The notes under the pieces: model-generated
Told to the model about the DNA's origin: nothing
The model's database searches: none
What the model saw: only the letters and a program-made list of their open reading frames with translations
Made by a program: the position numbers and the translations under genes
In this document: in pieces, positions 2,670-61,088 of the stretch
How the letters are laid out: each line of letters begins with the position of its first letter
Position numbering within the stretch: the stretch's first letter is position 1
From: Eledone cirrhosa
Taxonomy: Eukaryota
Assembly: GCA_964016885.1 (NCBI GenBank)
Contig: OZ024740.1
Span: 363,568,001 to 363,632,000, forward strand
DNA: 64,000 bases
Direction: 5' to 3'

Positions 2670-4172
2670 TAATGTAGTTGATGAAAAGAGAGATAAGTTA
2701 GATTCACATGACATAGAGGGCAAATGGAAATGTTTATGTGACAAACTTTTGTGAACTACTGATGTGACTTGTGACTAGAGCAAAGCACCAGCCAGATAGC
2801 ACCACTGGTGTTCAAAAGAAAGAGGCCTGGAAAAGTTACTAAGAGAGACTGATAAATGAAGAGAATGAATGAGGGGAAGAGTGACTACCTCCAACCTACC
2901 CAAAAGAGGGACCAGCTATTGAAATTGACAGGTATAGGGCCAAAGAAACAATAAAGGAGATGAAGAATGGTAAAACTGCGGGACAATCAGAGATAGTTGC
3001 TGAGATGCTGAAAGCATCAGAAGTAGGAGCCAAACTAGTAACCTGCATAGTCAATCAGGTAATACAGGAAGGAATCATACACAAGAACTGGTGCAGTAGA
3101 ACAATAAAAAAATTGTTACAAGATGCTCTAGAAAGGAGCAATTATAGAGGAATATAAATAATGGACCAATTTATGAAAGTGATATTGAGAGTTCTAGCAC
3201 AGCTAATTACAGAAAGAGTCAAATTAGATGAGATGCAATTCAGTTTTGTGCCAGGGAAAAGTACTACAGATGCTCTTATTTTAGTGAGGCAACTACAAGA
3301 CAAATTCCTAGCCAAAAATAAGCCACTGTATTTAGCTTTTATTGATCAAGAAAAGGCCCTTGACAGAGTACCTCATTCTGTTATCTGGTGGTCCTTAAGA
3401 AAATTAGGCATAGAAAAATAGCTTATGAGAGCAGTGCAATCCAAATACAGAGGAACTGTAAGTAAAGTGAGAGTAGGAAGTGAGTTTAGTGAGAAATTCA
3501 TGGTACAAGTAGGTGTTCATCAGGGTTCGGTTCTTAACCCACTACTATTCATCATAATTCTCCAGGCCATAACAGAGGAGTTTAAGACTGGCTGTCCATG
3601 GGAACTTCTCTATGCAGATGACCTGGTCCTTATAGCTAAATCCATAAAAGAACTAGAAAATAAGTTCCAACTATGGAAAAAGAATTTGGAATCAAGAGGG
3701 CTGAGAGGAAACATAGCCAAAATTAAGTGCTAGTGAGTAGGAAAGAAGATAAGACCCTGATTCTTTCAGGGAGGTGGTTCTGCTCAATATATAGAAAAAG
3801 AGGAGGCATAACTCTATCCAATGTACACAATGTGAATCTTAGGTACACAAGAGATGTAGTGGGATAGCAGGGGTAATCAATGGGAAGTGCATCAGTGATA
3901 TAAATCTTTTCCAATCACATGTGGTTAATAGCTTCTGTTATCTAGGTGACCTAATTAGTACTGGAGGTGGGTACTCCAAGATCATAATAACTAGAGTAAG
4001 GATAGGATGGAAGAAATTTAGAGAGCTACTCCAATTGTTGAAAACAAAAGGCTTCTCCCTATGTACAAAAAGATGGCTGGATGACACCTGTGTGAAAAGC
4101 GCGATGCTGCATGGTAGTAAAAAAACATGCGCAGTGACAACAATGGATATTCATAGCCTGGAGAGGAATGAA
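2670..4172 (+). pseudogene. Decayed non-LTR retrotransposon (RTE/RTE-X-like LINE) reverse transcriptase fragment
   Basis: Broken ORFs carry RT motifs MKNGKTAG, NYRGI, QFSFVPGKSTTDA, LAFID.EKA.DRVP, QGSVLNPLLF, ELLYADDLVL (YADD at 3611-3622), FCYLG and RIGWKKFREL. Many stops and frameshifts. 3'-truncated after ...LERNE. Confidence 0.92.
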
Positions 4173-4360
4173 GAAGAACAAAAGATAATATTAGTGATTT
4201 ATCTTCAAATGAATCAGATGTGTATATCCCTGATTTTTCATCCGATGATGATTGTTGTTATGAAAGTGAAAGCAAAGGAGATCTCCAGGACGCCATTGAA
4301 AATATTACAGCAACGTGATTGAGAAACACCACACCAATACATGTTCCTGATTTCATTGAA
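4173..4360 (+). pseudogene. piggyBac-type transposase N-terminal fragment (acidic region), continuing in frame into the satellite
   Basis: Manual translation: DNISDLSSNESDVYIPDFSSDDDCCYESESKGDLQDAIENITAT*(likely W)LRNTTPIHVPDFIE-NTDPQHTLRPDAGP. An acidic leader followed by W...P.F...GP is typical of the start of PGBD-like transposases. It is on the same strand as the C-terminal fragment at 52693. Confidence 0.65.
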
Positions 4361-7300
4361 AATACTGATCCACAACACACATTACGTCCTGATGCTGGTC
4401 CACAATACACATTACCTCCTGATGCTGGTCCACAATAAACATTACCTCCCAATACTGGTCCACAACACATATTACCTCCTGATGCCGGTCCACAATACAC
4501 ATTACCTCCCAATACTGGTCCAGAACGCACATTACCTCCCAATACTGGTCCACAACACACATTACCTCCCAATACTGGTCCACAATACACATTACCTCCC
4601 AATACTGGTCCACAACGCACATTACCTCCCAATACTGGTCCACAACACACATTACCTCCCAATACTGGTCCATAATACACATTACCTCCCAATACTGGTC
4701 CCCAACACACATTACCTCCCAATACTGGTCCACAATACACATTACCTCCCAATACTGGTCCACAACGCACATTACCTCCCAATACTGGTCCACAACACAC
4801 ATTACCTCCCAATACTGGTCCACAATACACATTACCTCCCAATACTGGTCCACAACGCACATTACCTCCCAATACTGGTCCACAACACACATTACCTCCC
4901 AATACTGGTCCACAATACACATTACCTCCCAATACTGGTCCACAACACACATTACCTCCCAATACTGGTCCACAATACACATTACCTCCCAATACTGGTC
5001 CACAACGCACATTACCTCCCAATACTGGTCCACAACACACATTACCTCCCAATACTGGTCCCCAACACACATTACCTCCCAATACTGGTCCACAATACAC
5101 ATTACCTCCCAATACTGGTCCACAACGCACATTACCTCCCAATACTGGTCCACAACACACATTACCTCCCAATACTGGTCCACAATACACATTACCTCCC
5201 AATACTGGTCCACAACGCACATTACCTCCCAATACTGGTCCACAACACACATTACCTCCCAATACTGGTCCACAATACACATTACCTCCCAATACTGGTC
5301 CACAACACACATTACCTCCCAATACTGGTCCACAACACACATCACCTCCCAATACTGCTCCCCAACACACATTACCTCCCAATACTGGTCCACAACACAC
5401 ATTACCTCTCAATACTGGACCACAACACACATTACCTCCCAATACTGGTCCACAACACACATTCCCTCCTGATGCTGGTCCACAACACACATCACCTCCC
5501 AATACTGGTCCACAAGACACATTACCTCCCAATACTGGTCTACAACACACATTCCATCCTGCTGCTGGTCCACAACACACATCACCTCCCAATACTGGTC
5601 CACAACAAACATTACCTCCCAATACTGGTCCACAACACACATTACCTCCTGATGCTGGTCCACAACACACATTACCTCCCAATACTGGTCCACAACATAC
5701 ATTACCTCCTGATGCTGGTCCACATCACACATTACCTCCCAATACTGGTCCACAACACACATCACCTCCCAATATTGGTCCACAACACACATCACCTCCC
5801 AATACTGGTCCACAACACACGTTACCTCCTGATGCTGGTCCACAACACACATCACCTCCCAATACTGGTCAACAACACACATTACCTCCTGCTGCTGGTC
5901 CACAGCACACATTACCTCCCAATACTGGTCCCCAACGCACATTACCTCCTGATGCTGGTCCACAACACACATTACCTCCCAATACTGGTCCACAACATAT
6001 ATTACCTCCCAATACTGATCCACAACACACTTAACCTCCGAATACTGGTCCCCAACACACATTCCCTCCCAATACTGGTCCCCAACACACATTCCCTCCC
6101 AATACTGGTCCACAATACACATTACCTCCCAATACTGGTGCACAATACACATTACCTCCCAATACTGGTCCACAACACACATTACCTCCTGATACTGGTC
6201 CCCAACACACATTACCTCCTGATGCTGCTCCACAACACACATTACCTCCCAATACTGGTCCCCAACACACATTCCCTCCCAATACTGGTCCACAATACAC
6301 ATTACCTCCCAATACTGGTCCACAACACACATTACCTCCCAATACTGGTCCATAACACACATTACCTCCCAATGCTGGTTCACAACACACATTACCTCTT
6401 GATGCTGGTCCACAACACACATTACCACCCAATACTGGTCCAGAACACACATTACCTCCCAATACTAGTCCCCAACACACATTACCTCCTGATGCTGGTC
6501 CACAACACACATTACCTCCCAATACTGCCCCACAACGTAGATTACCTCCCAATACTGGTCCACAACACACATTACCTCCCATTACTGGTCCACAACACAC
6601 GTTATCTCCCAATACTGGTCCACAACACACATTACCTCCTGATGCTGGTCCACAACACACATTACCTCCCAATATTGGTCCACAACACACATTACCTCCC
6701 AATACTGGTCCCCAACGCACATTACCTCACAATACTGGTCTACAACACACATTACCTCCCAATACTGGTTCCCAACACACATTACCTCCCAATACTGGTC
6801 CACAACGCACATTACCTCCCAATACTGGTCCACAACACACATTACCTCCCAATACTGCTCCCCAACACACATTACCTCCCAATACTGGTCCACAACACAC
6901 ATTACCTCTCAATACTGGTCCACAACACACATTACCTCCCAATACTGATCCACAACACACATTCCCTCCTGATGCTGGTTCACAACACACATCACCTCCC
7001 AATACTGGTCCACAAGACACATTACCTCCCAATACTGGTCTACAACACACATTCCATCCTGATGCTGGTCCACAACACACATCACCTCCCAATACTGGTC
7101 CACAACACACATTACCTCCCAATACTGGTCCACAACACACATTACCTCCTGATGCTGGTCCACAACACACATTACATCCCAATACTGGTCCACAACATAC
7201 ATTACCTCCTGATGCTGGTCCACATCACACATTACCTCCCAATACTGGTCCACAACACACATCACGTCCCAATATTGGTCCACAACACACATTACCTCCC

Positions 7301-10300
7301 AATACTGGTCCACAACACACATTACCTCCTGATGCTGGTCCACAACACACATTACCTCCCAATACTGGTCCACAACATATATTACCTCCCAATACTGATC
7401 CACAACACACTTAACCTCCCAATACTGGTCCCCAACACACATTCCCTCCCAATACTGGTCCCCAACACACATTCCCTCCCAATACTGGTCCACAATACAC
7501 ATTACCTCCCAATACTGGTGCACAATACACATTACCTCCCAATACTGGTCCACAACACACATTACCTCCTGATGCTGGTCCCCAACACACATTACCTCCT
7601 GATGCTGGTCCACAACACACATTACCCCCCAATACTGGTCCCCAACACACATTCCCTCCCAATACTGGTCCACAATACACATTACCTCCCAATACTGGTG
7701 CACAATACACATTACCCCCCAATACTGGTCCACAACACACATTACCTCCTGATGCTGGTCCCCAACACACATTACCTCCTGATGCTGGTCCACAACACAC
7801 ATTACCTCCCAATACTGGTCCACAACACACATTACCTCCCAATACTGGTCCACAACACACATTACCTCCCAATACTGGTCCACAGCACACATTACCTCCC
7901 AATACTGGTCCACAACACACATTACCTCCCAATGCTGATCCACAACACACATTACCTCCTGATGCTGGTCCACAACACACATTACCTCCTAATACTGGTC
8001 CACAACACACATTACCTCCCAATACTGGTCCACAACACACATTACCTCCCAATACTGGCCCACAACACACATTACCTCCCAATACTGGTCTCCAACACAC
8101 ATTACCTCCCAATACTGGTCGACAACACACATTACCTCCCAATACTGGTCCACAACACACATTACCTCCCAATGCTGGTCCACAACACACATTACCTCCT
8201 GATGCTGGTCCACAACACACATTACCTCCCAATACTGGTCCACAACACACATTACCTCCCAATACTGGTCCAGAACACAGATTACCTCCCAATACTGGTC
8301 CACAACACACATTACCTCCCAATGCTGGTCCACAACACACATTACCACCTGATGCTGGGGTCCACAACACACATTACCTCCCAATACTGGTCCACAACAC
8401 ACATTACCTCCCAATACTGGTCCACAACACACATTACGTCCTGATGCTGGTCCACAACACACATTACCTCCCAATACTGGTCCCCAACGCACATTACCTC
8501 ACAATACTGGTCCACAACACACATTAGCTCCCAATACAGGTCCCCAACACAAATTCCCTCCCAATACTGGCCCACGACACACATTACCTCCCAGTACTGG
8601 TCCACAACACACATTACCTCCTGATGCTGGTCCACAACGCACATTACCTGCCAATACTGGTCCACAATAGACATTATCTCCAAATACTGGTCCAGAACAC
8701 ACATTACCTCCCAATATTGGTCCACAACACACATCACCTCCCAATACTGGTCCACAACACACATTACCTCCTGATGCTGGTCCAAAACACACTTTACCTC
8801 CCAATACTGGTCAACAACACACATTACCTCCTGCTGCTGGTCCACAGCACACAGTACCTCCCAATACTGGTCCCCAACACACATTACCTCCTGATGCTGG
8901 TCCACAACACACATTACCTCCCAATACTGGTCCACAAAAACATTACCTCCCAATACTGGTCCACAACACACATTACCTCCCAATACTGGTCCCCAACACA
9001 CATTCCCTCCCAATACTGGTCCCCAACACACATTCCCTCCCAATACAGGTCCACAATACACATTACCTCCCAATACTGGTCCACAACACACATTACCTCC
9101 CAATGCTGGTCCACAACACACATTCCCTCCCAATACTGGTCCACAATACACATTACCTTCCAATACTGGTCCACAACACACATTACCACCCAATACTGGT
9201 CCACAACACACATTACCTCCCAATACTGGTCCACAACACACAATACCTCCCAATGCTGGTCCACAACACACACTACCTCCTGATGCTGGTCCACAACACA
9301 CATTACCTACCAATACTGGTTCACAACACACATTACCTCCTGATGCTGGTCCACAACACACATTACCTCCCAATACTGGTCCACAACACACATTCCCTCC
9401 CAATACTGGTCCACAACACACATTACCTCCCAATACTGGTCCACAACACATATTACCTCCTGATGCTGGTTCACAATACACATTCCCTCCCAATACTGGT
9501 CCACAACGCACATTACCTCCCAATACTGTTCCCCAACACACATTACCTCCCAATACTGGTCCCCAACACACATTACCTCCTGATGCTGGTCCGCAGCACA
9601 CATTACCTCCCAATACTGGTCCACAAAACATATTACCTCCCAATACTGGTCCCCAACACACATTATCTCCCAATACTGGTCCCCAACACACATTTCCTCC
9701 CAATACCGGTCCAAAACACATTACCTGCTGATGCTGGTACCCAACACACATTACCTCCTGATGCTGGTCCACAACACACATTACCTCCCACTACTGGTCC
9801 ACAAAGCACATTACCCCCCAATACTGGTCCCCAACACACGTTACCTCCCAATACTGGTCCCCAACACACATTACCTCCCAATACTGGTCCACAACGCACA
9901 TTACCTCCCAATACTGGTCCACAACACACATTACCTCCTGATGCTGGTCCACAACACACATTACCTCCCAATACTGGTCCACAACACACATTTCCTCCTG
10001 ATGCTGGTCCGCAGCACACATTACCTCCCAATACTGGTCCACAACACACATTACCTCACAATATTGGGACACAACACACATTACCTCCCAATACTGGGCA
10101 ACAACACACATTACCTCCCAATACTGGGCCACAACACACATTACCTCCCAATACTGGTCCACAACACACATTACCTCCCAATACTGGTCCACAACACACA
10201 TTACATCCCAATACTGGTCCACAACACACATTACCTCCCAATACTGGTCCACAACACACATTACCTCCTGATGCTGGTCCACAACACACATTACCTCCCA

Positions 10301-13300: not shown

Positions 13301-16300
13301 ATGCTGGTCCACAACACACATTACATCCCAATACTGGTCCACAACACACATTTCCTCCTGATGCTGGTCCACAACACACATTACCTCCCAATACTGGTCC
13401 ACAACACACATTAACTCCCAATACTGGTCTACAACACACATTACCTCCTGATGCTGGTCCACAACACACATTACCTCCCAATACTAGTCCACAACAGACG
13501 TTACCTCCCAATACTGGTCCACAACACACATTACCTCCCAATACTGGTCCACAACACACATTTCCTCCCATTACTGGTCCACTACACACATTACCTCCCA
13601 ATACTGGTCCACAACACACATTACTTCCCAATACTGGTCCACAACACACATTACCTCCCAATACTGGTCCACAACACACATTACTTCCCAATACTGGTCC
13701 ACAACACACATTACTTCCCAATACTGGTCCACAACACACATTACCTCCCAATACTGGTCCACAACACACATAACCTCCTGATGCTGGTCCATAACACACA
13801 TTCCATCCTGATGCTGGTCCACAACACACATTTCCTCCTGATGCTGGTCCACAACACACCTTTCCTCCTGATGGTGGTCCACAACACACATTACCTCCCA
13901 ATACTGGTCCACAACACACATTACCTCCCAATACTGGTCCACAACATACATTACCTCCCAATACTGGTCCACAACACACATTACCTCCCAATACAGGTCC
14001 AAACACACATTACCTCCTGATGCTGGTGCACAACACACATTCCCTCCTGATGCTGGTCCACAACACACATTACCTCCCAATACTGGTCCACAAAATACAT
14101 TACCTCCCAATACTGGTCCACAACACACATTCCCTTCCAATACTGGTCCACAACACAGATTCCCTCCCAATACTGGTCCACAACACACATTACCTCCTGA
14201 TGCTGGTCCACTACACACATTACCTCCCAATACTGGTCCACAACACACATTACCTCCCAATACTGGTCCACAACACACATTCCCTCCCAATACTGGTCCA
14301 CAACACACATTCCCTCCCAATACTGGTCCACAACACACATTACCTCCCAATACTGGGCCACAACACACATTACCTCCCAATACTGGTCCACAAAACACAT
14401 TAACTCTCAATACTGGTCCCCAACACACATTACCTTCCAATACTGGTCCACAACACACATTAACTCTCAATACTGGTCCCCAATACTGGCCCCCAACACA
14501 CATTACCTCACAATACTGGTTCACAACGCACATTACCTCCCAATACTGGACAACAATAGACATTACCTCCTGATGCTGGTCCACAACACACATTACCTCC
14601 CAATACTGGTCCACAACACACATTTCCTCCTGATGCTGGTCCACAACACACATTACATCCCAATACTGGTCCACAACACACATTCCCTCCCAATACTGGT
14701 CTACAATACACATTACCTCCTGATGCTGGTCCACAACACACATTACCTCCCAATACTGGTCCACAACACACATTACCTACTGATGCTGGTCCACAACACA
14801 CATTACCTCCCAATACTGGCCCACAACACAGATTACCTCCCCATACTGTGCCACAACACACAGTACCTCCCAATACTGGGCCACAACACACATTACCTCC
14901 CAATACTGGTACACAACACACATTCCCTCCTGATGATGGTCCACAACACACATTACCTCCTGATACTGGTCCACAACACACATTACCTCCCAATACTTGT
15001 CCACAACACACATTACCTCCCAATACTGGTCCACAACACACATTACCTCGCAATGCTGGTCCACAACACAGATTCCCTCCTGATACTGGTCCATAACACA
15101 CATTACCTCATGATACTGGTACACAACACACATTACCTCCCAATACTGGTCCAAAACACACGTTACCTCCCAATACTGGTCCACAACACACATTCCTTCC
15201 CAATACTGGTCCACAACTCACATTAACTCCCAATACTAGTCCACAACACACATTACCTCCCAATGCTGGTCCACAACACACATTCCCTCCCAATACTGGT
15301 CCACAACACACATTACCTCCTGATGCTGGTTCACAACACACATTACCACCTGATGCTGGTCCACAACACACATTACCTCCCAATACTGGTCCACAACACA
15401 CATTACCTCCCAATACTGGTCCACAACACACATTACCTCCCAATACTGGTACACAACACACATTACCTCCTGATGCTGGTCCACAACACACATTACGTCC
15501 CAATACTGGGCCACAGCACAGATTACCTCCCAATACTGGGCCACAACACACATTACCTCCCAATACTGGTCCACAACACACATTACCTCACAATACTGGG
15601 CCACAACACACATTACCTCCCAATACTGGTCCACAAAACACATTAACTCTCAATACTGGTCCCCAACACACATTACCTTCCAATACTGGTCCACAACACA
15701 CATTAACTCTCAATACTGGTCCCCAATACTGGTCCACAACGCACATTACCTCCCAATACAGGTCCACAATAGACATTACCTCCTGATGCTAGTCCACAAC
15801 ACACATTACCTCCCAATACTGGTCCACAACACACATTTCCTCCTGATGCTGGTCCACAACACACATTACCTCCCAATACTGGTCTACAATACACATTACC
15901 TCCCAATACTGGTCCACAACACACATTACCTACTGATGCTGGTCCACAACACACATTACCTCCCAATACTGGCCCACATCACAGATTACCTCCCAATACT
16001 GGGCCACAACACACAGTACCTCCCAATACTGGTCCACAACACACATTACCTCCCTATACTGGTCCACAACACACATTACCTCCCAATACTAGTCCACAAC
16101 ACACGTTACCTCCCAATACTGGTCCACAACACACATTCCCTCCCAATACAGGTCCACAATACACATTCCCTCCTGATACTGGTCCACAACACACATTACC
16201 TCCCAATACTTGTCCACAACACACATTACCTCCCAATACTGGTCCACAACACACATTACCTCCCAATACTGGTCCACAACACACATTACCTCGCAATGCT

Positions 16301-52300: not shown

Positions 52301-52692
52301 TACCTCCCAATACTGGTCCACAACACACATTACCTCCCAATACTGGTCCACAACACACATTACCTGCCAATACGGGTCCACAACATACATTAACTCCCAA
52401 TAACTGGTCCACAATACACATTACCTACCAATACTGGTCCACAACACAAATTACCTACCAATACTGGTCCCAACACACATTACCTCCTGATGCTGGTGCA
52501 CAACACACATTACCTACCAATACTGGTCCACAACACAAATTACCTACCAATACTGGTCCCAACACACATTACCTCCTGATGCTGGTGCACAACACACATT
52601 AACTCCCAATACTGGTCCACAACACACATCACCACGCACTACTGGTCCACAAAACACATTACCTCCCAATACTGGTCCACAACACACATTAC
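4361..52692. repeat. ~48-kb tandem satellite/minisatellite, 30-bp unit, ~1,600 copies, two main variants (…CCCAATACTGGTCC… and …CCTGATGCTGGTCC…)
   Basis: A 30-bp period is directly visible from 4361 to 52692. Occasional 29-, 31-, 32- and 12-bp units shift the phase. The plus strand is strongly C/A-rich. Most units contain GGTCC. Confidence 0.99.
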
Positions 52693-53475
52693 TTATATAT
52701 TGGGCACATTCTGTAATGTAAATCTTCACAGACACATATTTTGACCGTTTTTTTCTTCGCTGCTTCTAGCAGAGGATCTTTCCCTTGTAAATACGTACAC
52801 TTGCAGTATAATAATGGGGAAACGCAAAGGGCTACCCCAAGAAATAAAATGTACTAAATTTAAAAAAAGAGGGAGGGGACATTCTTCAGGTGCAAAAAGG
52901 GAACATGTTAGCCACATTGTACAAAGAAAAATGGCAAATGTTGTTCCTATCTTTCAACCAACAACCAGGTGTTGGGGCTGAAGGTAAACCTTTAGTCAAC
53001 ATCTCCCACAATAAATATATGGGTGGGGGGTTGACAAATCTGACCAGTATTGCGCATATTACACAATTGGACGCCCTGGAAAGAAATGGTGGAGATATAT
53101 CTTGTGGTTTTTAGTGAATTTAACCATTGTGAATTCTTTTATTGTATTCACTAAAAGCTACAAGGATTGGCCACCACCAAAGGACTACTGCCACATGAAA
53201 TTTTGTGTGGACGTCGCATCTCAGTTACGTGGAGGACATACTTTTCACAAACACAAAGCTGGGAGAAAATCAAAATTATCTGAGGTAAACAAAGAAATAT
53301 TGATTTTCATAAAGTGGAGAAAATTGATGGGAGGAAGGTTTGCTGAATGTGTTCTTTGCAAAAAAGAAAAACTGCTAAACGTTACCAAATTGAAATCTCA
53401 TTTATGTGTTCCTTTTCCAAAGTGCCATTATGTAAAGTGTGTTTTGGCCAATTCCACAATAGAAATATTGTCTGA
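52693..53475 (+). pseudogene. piggyBac transposase C-terminal half (DDE_Tnp_1_7-like core plus Cys-rich domain), decayed
   Basis: Reading across frameshifts: HRHI.FDRFF(S)SLLLAEDL...TYTCS...RKGLP, KPLVNISHNKYMGGVDKSDQYCAYYTIGRPGKKWWRYILWFLVNLTIVNSFIVF, then C-terminal C*MC...SFMCSFSKVPLCKVCFGQFH, stop at 53473-53475. These correspond to the second and third catalytic-Asp regions and the CRD of piggyBac. Confidence 0.9.
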
Positions 53476-53995
53476 AAATATTGAAAAATATATTGGAACA
53501 CGTTATGTACGGAAACACCTGCATTCACCTGTGTCACACCTGCATCACACCTGTTAATGGAGTATCTTAATGTTCTATGTACTCACTAGTTATCAAAAAT
53601 CTTTAATCACATTGCATTTATGTATTTCAGGTATCCTGTTGATGAAAGTGGTACTGTTAAATGAACCCCTAAAGAATGACTACTCCTCAAGAAAATGCAC
53701 AATGTGTGTCATGGTTTATTGAAACAAAATCAGACTCAGCGAAACTACAGAACTAAGTATGGAAGAGATCCACCGTCACATCCGTCAATTCATGCATGGC
53801 ACAAGAAATTTATGGAAAGAGGAGCATTGTTGGATAAAGGCAGAAGTGGACGACTAAGAATATCTGAGGAAAACATCGATCGTGTAAGACAAGCCTTTCA
53901 GTGTTCTCCTACAAAGCCCATCTGTACTGCTGTCAGACAGTTACAGCTGCCACCTTCAACAGTACAAAAAGTCCTACACAAGAACTTGCAATTGT

Positions 53996-54044
53996 CATGT
54001 CATCATTATCATCATTTAACGTCCATCTTCCACGCTACCATGGG
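53996..54044 (-). mobile_element. ~50-bp 5'-truncated retroelement 3' end inserted into the DD41D transposase
   Basis: 'catcattatcatcatttaacgtccatcttccacgctaccatggg' interrupts ...aacttgcaattgt|atgcttacaaagtg (NL.LYAYKV). Its reverse complement ends in an (ATG)n-like tail, as in RTE-type 3' ends. Confidence 0.6.
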
Positions 54045-54699
54045 ATGCTTACAAAGTGTAAATCTTACAGATACTCAAGCCAAATGATAAACCAAGACGA
54101 AAAGAGTTTCCAGTTAGCATGCTGGAATGAATTTCTGAGGATGAAACGTTCCTCACCTGAGTTTGTTTTAGTTATGAGGCAACCTTTCATGTTTCATGGA
54201 AACTGAATACACATAATGTGAGAATCTGGGGATCAGAATACCCCCATGTGACTAGTGAACTTCACTGAGATAGTCCAAAGGTGGAATGTGTGGTGTGGAA
54301 TCATGTGCAATCAAATCATTGCTCCGCTTTTCTTCAATGAGACATCAGTTACTGCAAATGTTTACCTTAACCTTTTGACTGAACATGTGGCACCACAACT
54401 AGATGACCTTCAACAAACAATCATTTTCCAGCAAGATGGTGCACCACCAAAATGAGGACTGCATGTTCATGGGTTCCTAAATCAAATATTTCCAAACCGG
54501 TGGATTGGAAGGGATGGCCCAATTCCCTGGTCACCTCATTCACCAGATATCACTCCTCTGGACTTCTTCCTATGGAGTTATGTTATAGATATCGTGTATC
54601 GAACAAAGATACAGCGAACATGGCAAGAAATCGAGTACCGTCTTGATGTGATTCGTGCAACTAATGGTGCCCATATGGAGGTGTATTGAATTAGTTAAA

Positions 54700-55001: not shown

Positions 55002-55111
<110 letters not shown>

Positions 55112-55117
55112 TACATA

Positions 55118-56014
55118 CGAGGTGTGTCAGAAAAGTTCCAGGACTGATGTCACAAAAGATTTATTTCAAACCCAAACTTTACACTAAGAGTTTTCTCCTT
55201 CCAAGTAATCCCCCTGGAGTATGTAACTGTAATCTTAGCTCTCTGCAGCGATCAAACTTTTTTCTTCATACTTTTATATACATGTCCTCTGTTTCAGGTC
55301 ATCAAGCAATGAGCACAGAGCAACGAACAAACTTGAAAACTCCGTCAGAAGCACTGGGATTGCTGCAGCAAGTGTATGGAGGTGAGACAATGTCACACTT
55401 GTGTGTTCTGGATGTGGTGCAAGAGGTTTAAAGAAGGACGCGAGGACGTGGAAGATGACCCCAGGAGCGGAAGGCCCTCAACAACCACGACTGAGGTCAA
55501 CGTTGAGCGCATCAGGCAGATGGTGCGTAGCAATCGTCGCCTGACTGTTCGACTGATGGCAAATGAGCTGGGCATGAATCGGGACAGCGTCTGGAAGATT
55601 CTCACTGAAGATTTGGACATGCGGAAAATCTATGCAAAGATGGTGCCAAAACTGCTGAACGATGACCAGAAGGGATGACACATGCAAGTGTGCCAGGACA
55701 TCCTCGAGCCTCTTGAAACCAAACCAGATTTGCTAGGGTCAGTCATCACTAGTGAAGAGTCACGGATCTTCGAGTAAGACCCGGAGGGGACCCGTTTTGA
55801 AGACGTGGACGACATCAAAAAAGCCATGACGATGGAACTGCGGAGGATCCCGGAGGAATCCTTCCAGGAGTGCATGCAAGCGTGGCAGAAAAGGATGGAA
55901 AAGTGCATTAGACTCCAGGGGGATTACTTTGAATGAGAAAACTCTTAGTGTGAAGTTTGGGTTTGAAATAAATCTTTTGTGACATCAGTCTTGGAACTTT
56001 TCTGACACACTTCG
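55118..56014 (+). mobile_element. Internally deleted mariner element with ~103-bp terminal inverted repeats and TA TSD
   Basis: IRs at 55118-55220 and 55912-56014, with TA on both sides. Transposase remnants: W.KRFKEGREDVEDDPRSGRP, AKMVPKLL (WVPHEL-like motif), ITSEESRIFE*DPE fused to GTRFEDVDDIK...KCIRLQGDYFE*. Confidence 0.92.
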
Positions 56015-56122
56015 TATATACATATACACATATAAACATATATACATATATATACATATACATACATATACATATATATACATATACATATGTATATATA
56101 TTACATATATATATATATACAC

Positions 56123-56153
<31 letters not shown>

Positions 56154-56414
56154 TGTATGCACACATATATATATACACACACATATATATATATACACAT
56201 ATACGTATACACACATATATATATATACACATATATATAAATACATTTATATACATATATATATGCACATATATATACATATACATATATATATATACAT
56301 ACATATATATATATACACATATATATACATATACATATATATATACATACATATATATACATATACATCCATAGACATATATATATACATATATATATAT
56401 ATATACATATACAC

Positions 56415-56467
<53 letters not shown>

Positions 56468-56560
56468 CACACACATATATATACACATATATATAGACAT
56501 ATATATATACATATATATACATGCATATACATATATATATATATATACATACATACATAT
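56015..56560. repeat. Degenerate (TA)/(TACA) low-complexity tract
   Basis: About 545 bp of alternating purine/pyrimidine TA/CA repeats. Confidence 0.95.
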
Positions 56561-58115: not shown

Positions 58116-58622
58116 TACCCAGCTAGTGGCACTGAGTACATCTCTACCCGAGAGCCCGGCAGCGGCAGCAATACCAACAACAACACCAATAATGAACTTG
58201 TCACGACGACAACCTATGTATGTATGTATGTGTGTGTATATATATGTAGATATATATGTGGATTTGTGTATGCGTAGACATGTGTGATGGTAGATATATA
58301 TATATATACTAGCAGTTTAGCCCGGCGTTGCTCGGGTTTGTTCATTTGCTATGAAAAGTTACATACAGGTAAACGTGGCTTGAAAGCGAATAAGCTTATC
58401 AATTAAGTGCATAAAGCAGTTGAACCGGTTATTAAAAGTTACGAACCAATTAGCATTTTGGACAATCAATGATGGGTTAATAATCTTCCAATAGCGAATT
58501 TAGTAGACCAAAGTTGCAAGATGGTGGCTCTGATGCTGCTGGGTGTCAGATCTGTCCGCCATGGGATACCCTACCAGGAAATAGTGTTTCAGACGGCATA
58601 GCTCCAACACCTGCACCAACAT

Positions 58623-60985
58623 CTATAGCACCTCTTTGTAGACGATATTGCGTGTCATCCTTTGAGGAGTGTAAGCAAAAAGTCCATTCCTGCTCCCTAT
58701 GCAGGAACAGGCAACATAAGTTGGCCATGGGAGAAGGGCTGTTCATAATGTTGCACAGGGAGTCGATTGCTATGCCGCCCTTGTCATCCGCAGGGACCTT
58801 GCCCTCACCAAGTGCTAAAATGTTCTGAGAAAATGCTGCAGACATGTTGTCACCATGCACATGAGCACGCATATTTGTGCTCAGGTACAAACTCTTCACC
58901 TGGAGCAATAACATGGACGACTTAAGACAGGCACGCACTTCATCAGCTCTTGTCCCTTTGGAGATGACAGGCAGCGTTTCTCGAAAATCCCCTGATAGCA
59001 GAAGGGTTACGCCACCCATAGGAGCCGTAGAATCCCTAATGTCTTTCAGGGTTCTGTACAATGCGCCAAGGGCACCCTTGTGTGCCATTGTGCACTCATC
59101 CCAAACAATGAGGCAACATTTTTTGAGAACCAGAGCTTTATGTGAACTCTTGCTGACATTGCATGTTGGTGTCTCAGTTTTTACTAAATCCAAGGGGAGT
59201 TTAAAGGTTGAATGTGCTGTCCTGCCTCCCGGCAGCAAAGTAGCAGCGATCCCGGACGATGCAACAGCCAACGAAATTTTTTTCTCCTGACGAATCTTAG
59301 CAAGTATTAATTTCGTTACAAAAGTTTTTCCGGTAGCCCCAGGAGCACCGAGAAAGTAAATACCCCCAATCTGATTTTGAACCGCGTCAATGATAGTTAA
59401 ATAGGCCAACCTTTGGTCCGACAGAAGTTTGGGCTCATTTTCCTCTAAGTATTGGGAAAGGGATTCGATGTCATATGCTGTTTCCCGCAACAAACCCGGG
59501 GCCAACATGTTAGCTTCCCCTCTGACGGTTGACGGCAAGCCATACGTCGCCAACTCACTCCCACCCATGTTGAGGAGGGCGTCCTCGATATCAATGAGTG
59601 CCCTGTTGTAGATAATGTCACTGTAACTAACTTCCACTGAAGTATATTGCAGATGAGCCAGGCGCAGGAAGTCCTCAGACATGAAGTCTCTGTACTTGAC
59701 CCATAAATATTTGGGATCACTCAATTCACACTTTTGAAGCAAAATGGCAAAAGTTCCCGTAGACCTTTAGGCGATTTCAGCAAAGCACCATCTGCTAAAG
59801 TGGAATCCCATTGCGAATCATCTTCCAAAAGACCACGCTTAAAGCAGGCTTCCCAGTACGTAAGACATATTTCTCCATCAACAGTTTTGAGGTCCTGAAA
59901 ACTCTGTGGGCCTACAACTTCATGCAGAAGAAGGCGGAGATGAAAGCATTAATGCTGATATTGGGGGCACAGTGTAAACCCTTCCAAGACAGCTGTCAAA
60001 TTTTACACCAGGATGTCTGTCAACAGCCTGACCTGACTTTCTTCGCACCCAAGTGTTTTTCGACCATATAAAGTAGGATGGAACCTGGGGGGTACACAAT
60101 TGTTTGTGCAAATGTATCGAACTGGTAAAGTTTGAAGAAACCCGTCAGAGTGGTCTCTTTCGGATCGGCGGCCAACTTGGTGGCGGTTTGGTCCGTAAAG
60201 TAAACCCTTTGTCCATTTTCCAAATGTACCACAAACTGTACAATGGCGGAGTGTCGTTGGTGTAGGGGTAAACCAAATAGGCGCCAAAAAGCTTCATTGC
60301 TACTGATGTACCGCCCCGCCAGGTATTCTGTGACCTCGTCCCTGCTATTTTCAGCTTGAAATGCGAACAATGCGGCATCACAGTCCTTATTTACATATTT
60401 GTATATGTATTTTATCGACTTGACGGAGTTGCAAAACTGAACGTTGATGTGGGCATTGAACATCTTCAAGAGAAGCGGGCAGTAAGGGACCACCCATCTA
60501 TTGTCGACTTGACCTCCCCTTACTGTTGTGGTGAAGCCACCGTTCTCGGGCCGTCTCCGCCTGTACAGGGGGTACCTGTCGCCACCAATCTGAGTCTGGT
60601 CAACAAATGTTTTTGGGTATCCCTTACTGCACGATACCCCTTTCAGACACGTGTGATGCTCATTAGGACCCGATGCACACGGACCATGTTAGCTTTGACG
60701 ATGTCATGTAATTCCTGGTCAGTTGCTGGGTTAAGGATTTCAGCTGAAATGAAGCTGTCTATGGCATTTGAATTGATTTTATCAGCTAACCAAATCAAAA
60801 TGTGAGCATGTGGCAGCCCTCGTTTTTGCCATTCGACGGTGAACATGTCACATTTTACTACCCCGAATACCTGACCCTTTTTTATTAAAGCCATGAGTTT
60901 AGCCAGTTTCAGTCTGAACACTCTGACAATGAGGTCATGTCTGTTTGAATAATTTTGCCCAGGAAAAAGTTCACGGGTTACATTC
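58623..60985 (-). pseudogene. Helitron Rep/PIF1-like helicase (RepHel) pseudogene
   Basis: HUH motif VEWQKRGLPHAHILIWL, Tyr motif KSIKYIYKYVNK, RYISSNEAFWR, Walker A GAPGATGKTF, GRTAHS, Walker B IVWDE, GDFR, and frameshifted C-terminus FSHGQLYVACS...TRNIVYKEVL*. Frameshifts and deletions throughout. Confidence 0.93.
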
Positions 60986-61088
60986 CGATTTATATGTCTA
61001 TAGCATTAATCTGTTATATGAAGTGTTATTTTGCGGGTTGTTATTTGCAATAAGCCAATTGAAAATGCCCCAGATAAGCTGTATGCCA

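Follow-up and report, generated by a model that had tools for sequence, protein, structure and literature searches.

A satellite of 30-bp units in Eledone cirrhosa, built from ten codons of a dead piggyBac transposase gene, and the probable source of its two linked unit variants

The tandem array described here is a non-coding satellite, with a unit taken from ten codons of a piggyBac transposase gene that is itself dead. It was found in a stretch of 64,000 nucleotides from Eledone cirrhosa, referred to as the window. Two unit variants, designated AATA and GATG after the bases with which they start, dominate the array. Comparison with related proteins suggests that both descend from two positions of the transposase lying 30 bp apart, to which we assign a probability of roughly 0.85. 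For the order of the founding events a scheme is proposed in which the GATG unit would have come first, and we give this order an even chance.

The array within the remnants of a transposase gene

The array is arranged head-to-tail inside co-oriented transposase remnants (Table 1), and its unit corresponds to ten codons of the transposase, in frame with the 5' remnant. This remnant could be aligned with the N-termini of the relatives P0043, P0008 and P0015, and a conserved Trp of the transposase reads as a stop at 4316-4318. In the 3' remnant, a match to PF13843 starting at 53015 scored 24.7 bits (cut-off 22.4) and a second piece scored 18 bits, below the cut-off. The closest named proteins are piggyBac fragments from Octopus vulgaris (P0001, 72%) and Octopus sinensis (P0003, 66%).

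Table 1. Features of the array and of the adjoining transposase remnants (positions in the window).
Feature	Position	Strand	Description
piggyBac-type transposase, 5' coding remnant	4172-4360	+	Acidic N-terminal region, then L-R-N-T-T-P-I-H-V-P-D-F-I-E
Tandem array	4361-52692	+	Period 30, 1,609 units, ~48.3 kb as assembled
Motif 1, N-T-[D]-P (family G-P), array start	4361-4372	+	Private G>A at +8
18-bp core Q-H-T-L-[R]-P (family x-H-x-L-x-x)	4373-4390	+	From frame reading and the relatives' alignment
First GATG-type junction, D-A-G-P	4391-4402	+	Another core comes next, so a repeat unit rather than the ancestral arm
Second GATG junction (4421), in-frame stop (4436), first CCC-AATA junction (4451)	4421-4462	+	
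CCT-AAT unit cited as intermediate	7988-8002	+	Unit start 7991; one of 23
3' array junction	52685-52700	+	Partial unit joins transposase ~200 codons downstream; second arm and L-D-Y-F missing
Transposase 3' coding remnant, frameshifted	52693-53470	+	PF13843 positions 214-269 and 311-349; Cys-rich tail

In four full-length relatives the G-P motif and the Y/F-x-D motif are separated by 228-229 residues, and the sequence of the window resumes 17 residues before Y/F-x-D. Therefore, ~200 codons (600 bp) of the transposase have been lost at the 3' junction. With the piggyBac/PGBD-like family (PF13843, DDE_Tnp_1_7) the element shares the acidic N-terminus, G-P...D-A-x-P, the G-V-D catalytic segment and the Cys-rich tail. 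It differs from the family in that this copy is dead, with stops, frameshifts and the deletion of ~200 codons (no intact frame with the catalytic triad was found), and in that no terminal repeats were recognised. A simple scan with TTAACC/GGTTAA for terminal repeats with the TTAA target site gave 10 scattered matches and no matched pair at the ends of the remnant, both of which abut other elements.

On the 5' side, the remnant is adjoined by a decayed reverse-transcriptase remnant at 2885-4170 (RVT_1, 41.7 bits in 3422-3730), which probably interrupts or replaces the piggyBac 5' end. Further upstream, at 1780-2115 on the reverse strand, a 111-residue frame without a Pfam match carries an acidic tract resembling the transposase N-terminus. 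On the 3' side, a Tc1/mariner-like remnant at 53680-54690 gave helix-turn-helix Pfam matches below the cut-off. A second, putative Tc1/mariner-like remnant, assigned by its motifs, is present at 55337-55930, and long (TA)n and degenerate TA-rich microsatellites lie on either side of it (55002-55106 and 56015-56560). The region 58546-61005 on the reverse strand encodes a PIF1 helicase (199 bits) with broken frames upstream and is likely a Helitron remnant.

Turnover within the array is apparent from 34 duplicated blocks of 20-77 units each, with a divergence of 0.4-3.3%. Nested duplicated blocks on the kb scale extend across 14229-47906; the pair 19727/22587 is offset by 2,860 bp, spans 77 units and differs by 1.0%, and the pair 38038/41246 differs by 0.4%. 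Seven units, at 14439, 15682, 17525, 21764, 24624, 28714 and 30137, contain an extra 13-base partial unit (43-bp period), and these insertions were propagated by block duplication. Just inside the 5' edge, a near-uniform run of 32 AATA junctions at 4500-5340 suggests a recent local expansion.

The array is under no coding constraint, as variants per column are distributed evenly over the codon positions (67/62/54, no third-position bias), 78 units bear stops and all 43 indel units are frame-shifting. Conservation of frame and amino acids by selection was tested across the array units and was not found, and nothing indicates a function. A search for the 30-bp unit in bacterial and archaeal genomes gave 0 matches. 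It is hardly credible that the array is a functional coding repeat, even though the unit comprises precisely ten codons in phase with the transposase and long open frames occur, since the stops at 4316 and 4436 add to those listed above. The same low credence applies to an assembly artefact, against which the 419 distinct ungapped units and the diverged nested blocks argue.

The two transposase motifs and the linked unit variants

To place the unit in the protein family, a profile search was used, which gave 148 new relatives; P0060 was left out, and of the 147 used, 44 were aligned over the motif region in a profile alignment. The relatives hold the repeated block once, as F-x-E-x-x-G-P-x-H-x-L-x-x-D-A-x-P-L-D-Y-F. 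At motif 1, G is found in 37/37 rows with a residue and P in 30/37, and N (4/35) and T (5/36) are compatible with the relatives, not conserved; D at the first position occurs in 1/35. At motif 2, D (16/41) and A (20/42) are both modal and P is found in 18/43, and the third position is S in 11, T in 10 and G in 0/42. A second G-P at a spacing of ten residues in the motif region is absent from all aligned relatives. The motifs x-x-G-P and D-A-x-P lie ten residues apart in the relatives, so that at the protein level the unit length equals the motif spacing. The N-terminal remnant plus the first units were also used as a query, and no close relatives covering the seed were found (43 candidates at 155-2000 residues, 3 at 88-280); the ancestral bases were thus deduced from distant proteins, which are ~30-59% identical over the C-terminal piece.

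An earlier note on this DNA had described codons for NT(G/D)P and DAGP 30 bp apart at the start of the array. Indeed, AATACTGATCCA at 4361-4372 encodes N-T-D-P and GATGCTGGTCCA at 4391-4402, exactly 30 bp from it, encodes D-A-G-P, both in the transposase frame. The two motifs are identical at 9/12 bases, or at 10/12 when the private G>A of unit 1 at +8 is replaced by the array-majority base, which extends the longest exact run from 4 to 8 bases. The 18 bases to their right match at 16/18, and the 9 bases to their left at only 3/9. Because 4391 is already a full unit, such similarity is expected in any array. The proposal that a 12-bp microhomology between these motifs served as the seed is therefore circular: what is seen at 4391 arose from a junction, the relatives lack Gly at the third position of motif 2 and the true arm is deleted. 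What stands of the derivation of the 30-mer from two ancestral motifs is that the spacing and the variants fit positions of the single-copy transposase; a pre-existing 12-bp homology is not supported. Furthermore, 9/12 motif pairs at spacing 30 were found at 5 loci in 12.8 kb of non-array flank, and at spacings of 10-60 there are ~28 per kb of flank (simple repeats included). Since similar motif pairs are this common, the seed gives no explanation for expansion at this site.

Motif 1 is likely the donor of the AATA variant and of GGT-CCA in all units. Judged by the relatives, the D-A at 4391-4402 likely stems from the ancestral motif 2, and its G-P was probably copied from motif 1. The original second arm appears to have been lost with the ~600 bp deletion at the 3' end of the array. 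At this junction, CAC-ATT can also be read as transposase H-I, a possible microhomology; His is present in only 4/29 anchored relatives (motif in 31/147).

Haplotypes were scored at positions -1, +1 and +4 over all 1,608 junctions, and the counts were C-A-A 1,086, T-G-G 353, T-G-A 47, T-A-A 23, A-A-A 20, C-C-A 18, C-A-G 17 and others 64. C-AATA or T-GATG was present at 1,439 junctions, with r = 0.944 (-1/+1), 0.875 (+1/+4) and 0.854 (-1/+4). This confirmed that two variants dominate and that their diagnostic bases co-occur, with no independent assortment of the three sites. The best other pair of columns reached r = 0.55 (1,156 pairs tested), and linkage dropped within a few bases (r = 0.23 for -7/-1 and -0.08 for +1/+12). 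Minor alleles amount to 24-27% at the three diagnostic columns, 16% at one other column and at most 5.9% at the other 26. Given the distance to the next-best pair and this background of minor alleles, the three-site linkage is regarded as real. The chance that three linked sites cover both differences between motif 1 and the GATG unit with matching bases was ~0.001. A fourth common variant was observed at array column 24 (A>C 16%, A>T 3%), with r = 0.23 to GATG units and no source in the seed, which indicates that drift alone can raise variants.

Along the whole array, 16-29 of every 100 units are of the GATG type, and 78 GATG-GATG neighbour pairs were counted versus 77.3 ± 6.9 after shuffling, which corresponds to a random variant order. 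From this mixing and the steady ratio it follows that both variants are early. The earlier note had both arise at once, which the junctions do not allow: each junction position yields one haplotype, namely T-G-G for breakpoints 4-12, T-G-A for 1-3 and T-A-A, without microhomology, for 0, and C-A-A is not obtained from the present edge sequence at any position. The T-G-A units (17 clusters at the middle threshold) exceed both the point-mutation expectation and the reciprocal C-A-G, and this excess may reflect a third early junction, block amplification or exchange at a later time. Of the GATG units, 341/353 carry GGT, and no trace of a different third codon of motif 2 was found in linkage with them. 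The haplotype C-G-G, a predicted intermediate, was present at 1/1,608 junctions and looks recent.

The -1 base is a synonymous position, so that the proteins carry no signal on it. Its difference is most simply explained by CpG decay, from CCC-GAT to CCT-GAT, in the GATG lineage: if the ancestor was CCC-GAT, -1 and +1 formed a CpG, the AATA unit would have arisen without further mutation and the GATG unit via CpG>TpG. The extra T>C change that had been thought necessary for CCC before AAT is then not needed, although T>C may have occurred in the AATA lineage instead. CpG decay has acted on this transposase copy, as seen from the CpG-type decay of Arg codons in the 3' remnant and from a low CpG observed/expected ratio. 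Conserved Arg residues were changed in 5/8 cases versus 21/106 for other conserved residues (P = 0.015), four of them by CpG-type transitions. The ratio is 0.24 in the left flank and 0.40 in the 3' remnant, both with an accompanying excess of TpG and CpA; it is 0.24-0.42 in the near flanks and 0.71 farther right. Against CpG decay at -1 speak the single C-G-G junction and the array itself, in which no depletion of CpG-creating variants was visible. In octopus, moreover, transposons are mostly unmethylated, though satellites show higher methylation (PMC9476566).

The order of the founding events and its alternatives

The following order is proposed from the comparison of the array with its relatives. 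First, a slip or an unequal exchange would have joined motif 2 (GAT-GCT-xxx-CCA) to motif 1 (AAT-ACT-GGT-CCA) at the CT that both contain, producing a 30-bp duplication, the GATG unit; the homology needed for this step may have been only AT.CT (2+2 bases). With copies present, an exchange with unit 1 up to the homology edge could have moved AATA into an internal unit, and C>T at the CpG of CCC-GAT in the GATG lineage would have made the difference at -1. Unequal exchange, conversion and kb-scale block duplication would then have multiplied the units and shuffled them. At the 3' end, ~600 bp of the transposase would have been deleted, and the true second arm with it.

This order is favoured because the array opens at its 5' edge with two GATG junctions and because microhomology is prevalent at tandem duplications. 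When a toy duplication/deletion model was restricted to well-mixed runs with 12-35% GATG, two GATG edge junctions were 3-30x likelier if GATG began beside the seed (164/620 vs 5/599, 90/455 vs 15/463 and 22/160 vs 8/160); an earlier parameter set had lost the polymorphism in all runs. Several points count against this scheme: the second step requires an exchange that stops exactly at the homology limit, motif 2 may have carried Gly in this piggyBac family, and arrays should prefer sites of long homology. The lack of conservation of N and T at motif 1, the near-absence of C-G-G and the rise of a variant without seed source to 16% also weigh against it.

The AATA unit may instead have come first, which we consider unlikely, if less so than the two alternatives that follow. 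CCC-AAT would have resulted directly from a 30-bp duplication joined immediately upstream of motif 1, by no exact microhomology or by G-T wobble. GATG would have been picked up afterwards from the terminal copy at the 3' end, once CpG>TpG had occurred, and that terminus would then have been deleted. Such a course requires no T>C, agrees with the AATA majority and is consistent with the absence of Gly at motif 2 and with CpG decay. Its junction, however, lies at position 0, without microhomology, whereas ~80% of tandem duplications carry it (PMC13167724), and GATG at the first two junctions becomes less likely by the factor obtained from the toy model.

Taken literally, the earlier note has near-perfect 12-bp motifs, both ending in GGT-CCA, that pre-existed and gave both variants in one event, with the CCT-AAT units as survivors from before T>C. 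The motifs, their spacing and the strong linkage are as described, and an 8-base exact match, if ancestral, would be a good substrate. This course of events is nevertheless improbable, given that Gly is found in none of the relatives at the third position of motif 2 and that a single junction yields a single haplotype. The CCT-AAT units exist, as at ~7988, and are not supported as intermediates: they make up 2.0% (23/1,132) of the AATA class, compared with 1.2-4.0% C>T at 11 other C columns, and fall into 8 context clusters versus 6-20 for other C>T columns. They are therefore taken as ordinary later changes, and T>C is half as frequent in the array as C>T (1.0% vs 2.05%).

A similarly small chance is given to a single founder unit with point mutations, in which the CpG at -1/+1 decayed both ways (to TpG and CpA), a further transition occurred at +4 and unit 1 was later converted to the AATA type, whose agreement with motif 1 would thus be secondary. 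Two-way CpG decay gives -1/+1 linkage without a second motif, N-T is not conserved in the relatives and the variant without seed source rose to 16%. On the other hand, three early-fixed mutations within 5 bp, loss of all intermediates and conversion of unit 1 up to the homology edge are needed, unit 1 keeps two private changes whose combination is present in no other unit, and few relatives have D at the start of motif 1. Descent of both variants from the two transposase positions remains our preferred reading.

Relation to known repeats and significance

The array is a transposon-derived satellite: its unit is homologous to a piece of a transposable element, it lies within co-oriented remnants and its blocks turn over without coding constraint. 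Alu-derived minisatellites are reportedly the subject of a 2006 paper by Jurka and Gentles. In human, 7,276 cases of transposon-derived minisatellites are given in PMC3389668. The review table of PMC9659126 lists mostly LTRs, UTRs, SINEs and MITEs, with L1 ORF2 and a gag ORF as coding sources. The source here differs in being ten codons of a DNA transposase, and piggyBac is not mentioned in these two papers. Searches of an open-access library listed no report of this array or of any satellite from a piggyBac coding region, which is weak evidence of absence.

The maize arrays CRM1TR and CRM4TR resemble the present one in that they derive from an element, their monomer variants were traced to parents, a multi-step origin was proposed and gene conversion was considered as the source of variants. 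They differ in their long LTR-UTR monomers and in a variant that came from another subfamily copy, while here the donor would be the array's own edge (PMC3648361).

In the Haber-Louis model and in microhomology-mediated tandem duplication (MTD), tandem repeats start from short direct repeats (PMC3389668, PMC6947457 and PMC13167724). The present array is alike in that, at the protein level, two short similar motifs lie one unit length apart and in that a first duplication would be followed by expansion. It differs in that the arms would have been imperfect and both would have left lasting variants, and in that the 3' arm is deleted, so that the two-arm signature cannot be read. PMC13167724 documents mostly 2-3 copies, compared with ~1,600 here. 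Compared with the 5-10 bp of MTD, only AT.CT is implied for the ancestral arms, and 8 exact bases would require the Gly that is missing from the relatives. By sequence comparison, the array would have originated by the known Haber-Louis route and would work like an MTD repeat, of which it may be an unusually readable case.

In-frame repeats were also observed among the 147 relatives scanned. P0019, P0027 and P0055 contain 4-5 in-frame copies of a 29-residue (87-bp) block located around the G-V-D catalytic segment and bounded by K-Y, with both arms visible in P0019 and P0055. The three proteins possibly form one family, and they suggest that in-frame duplications recur in piggyBac-like genes. 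Internal repeats were scored as well for P0022 (period 12), P0131 (period 7) and P0009. Based on the 29-residue repeats, it may be speculated, with little confidence, that piggyBac transposase genes are recurrent nurseries of in-frame repeats. Protein motifs would hard-code microhomologies at codon-multiple spacings, low-copy repeats could ride on active elements, and this locus would be an extreme, with the two arms of an imperfect microhomology preserved as linked variants over 1,600 copies.

The mechanism itself is already established. Since a long array obliterates the seed from which it grew, the first copies of a satellite can seldom be observed. In this case the array descends from a protein-coding motif that has many relatives, which allows its founding junctions to be located within a few bases and makes the sequence of steps open to testing. 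The locus also calls for caution, as microhomology at the edge of an array may be a product of the duplication and not its cause. If piggyBac genes do act as repeat nurseries, the order of the first events at the birth of a satellite would be readable here and could be compared with sibling copies.
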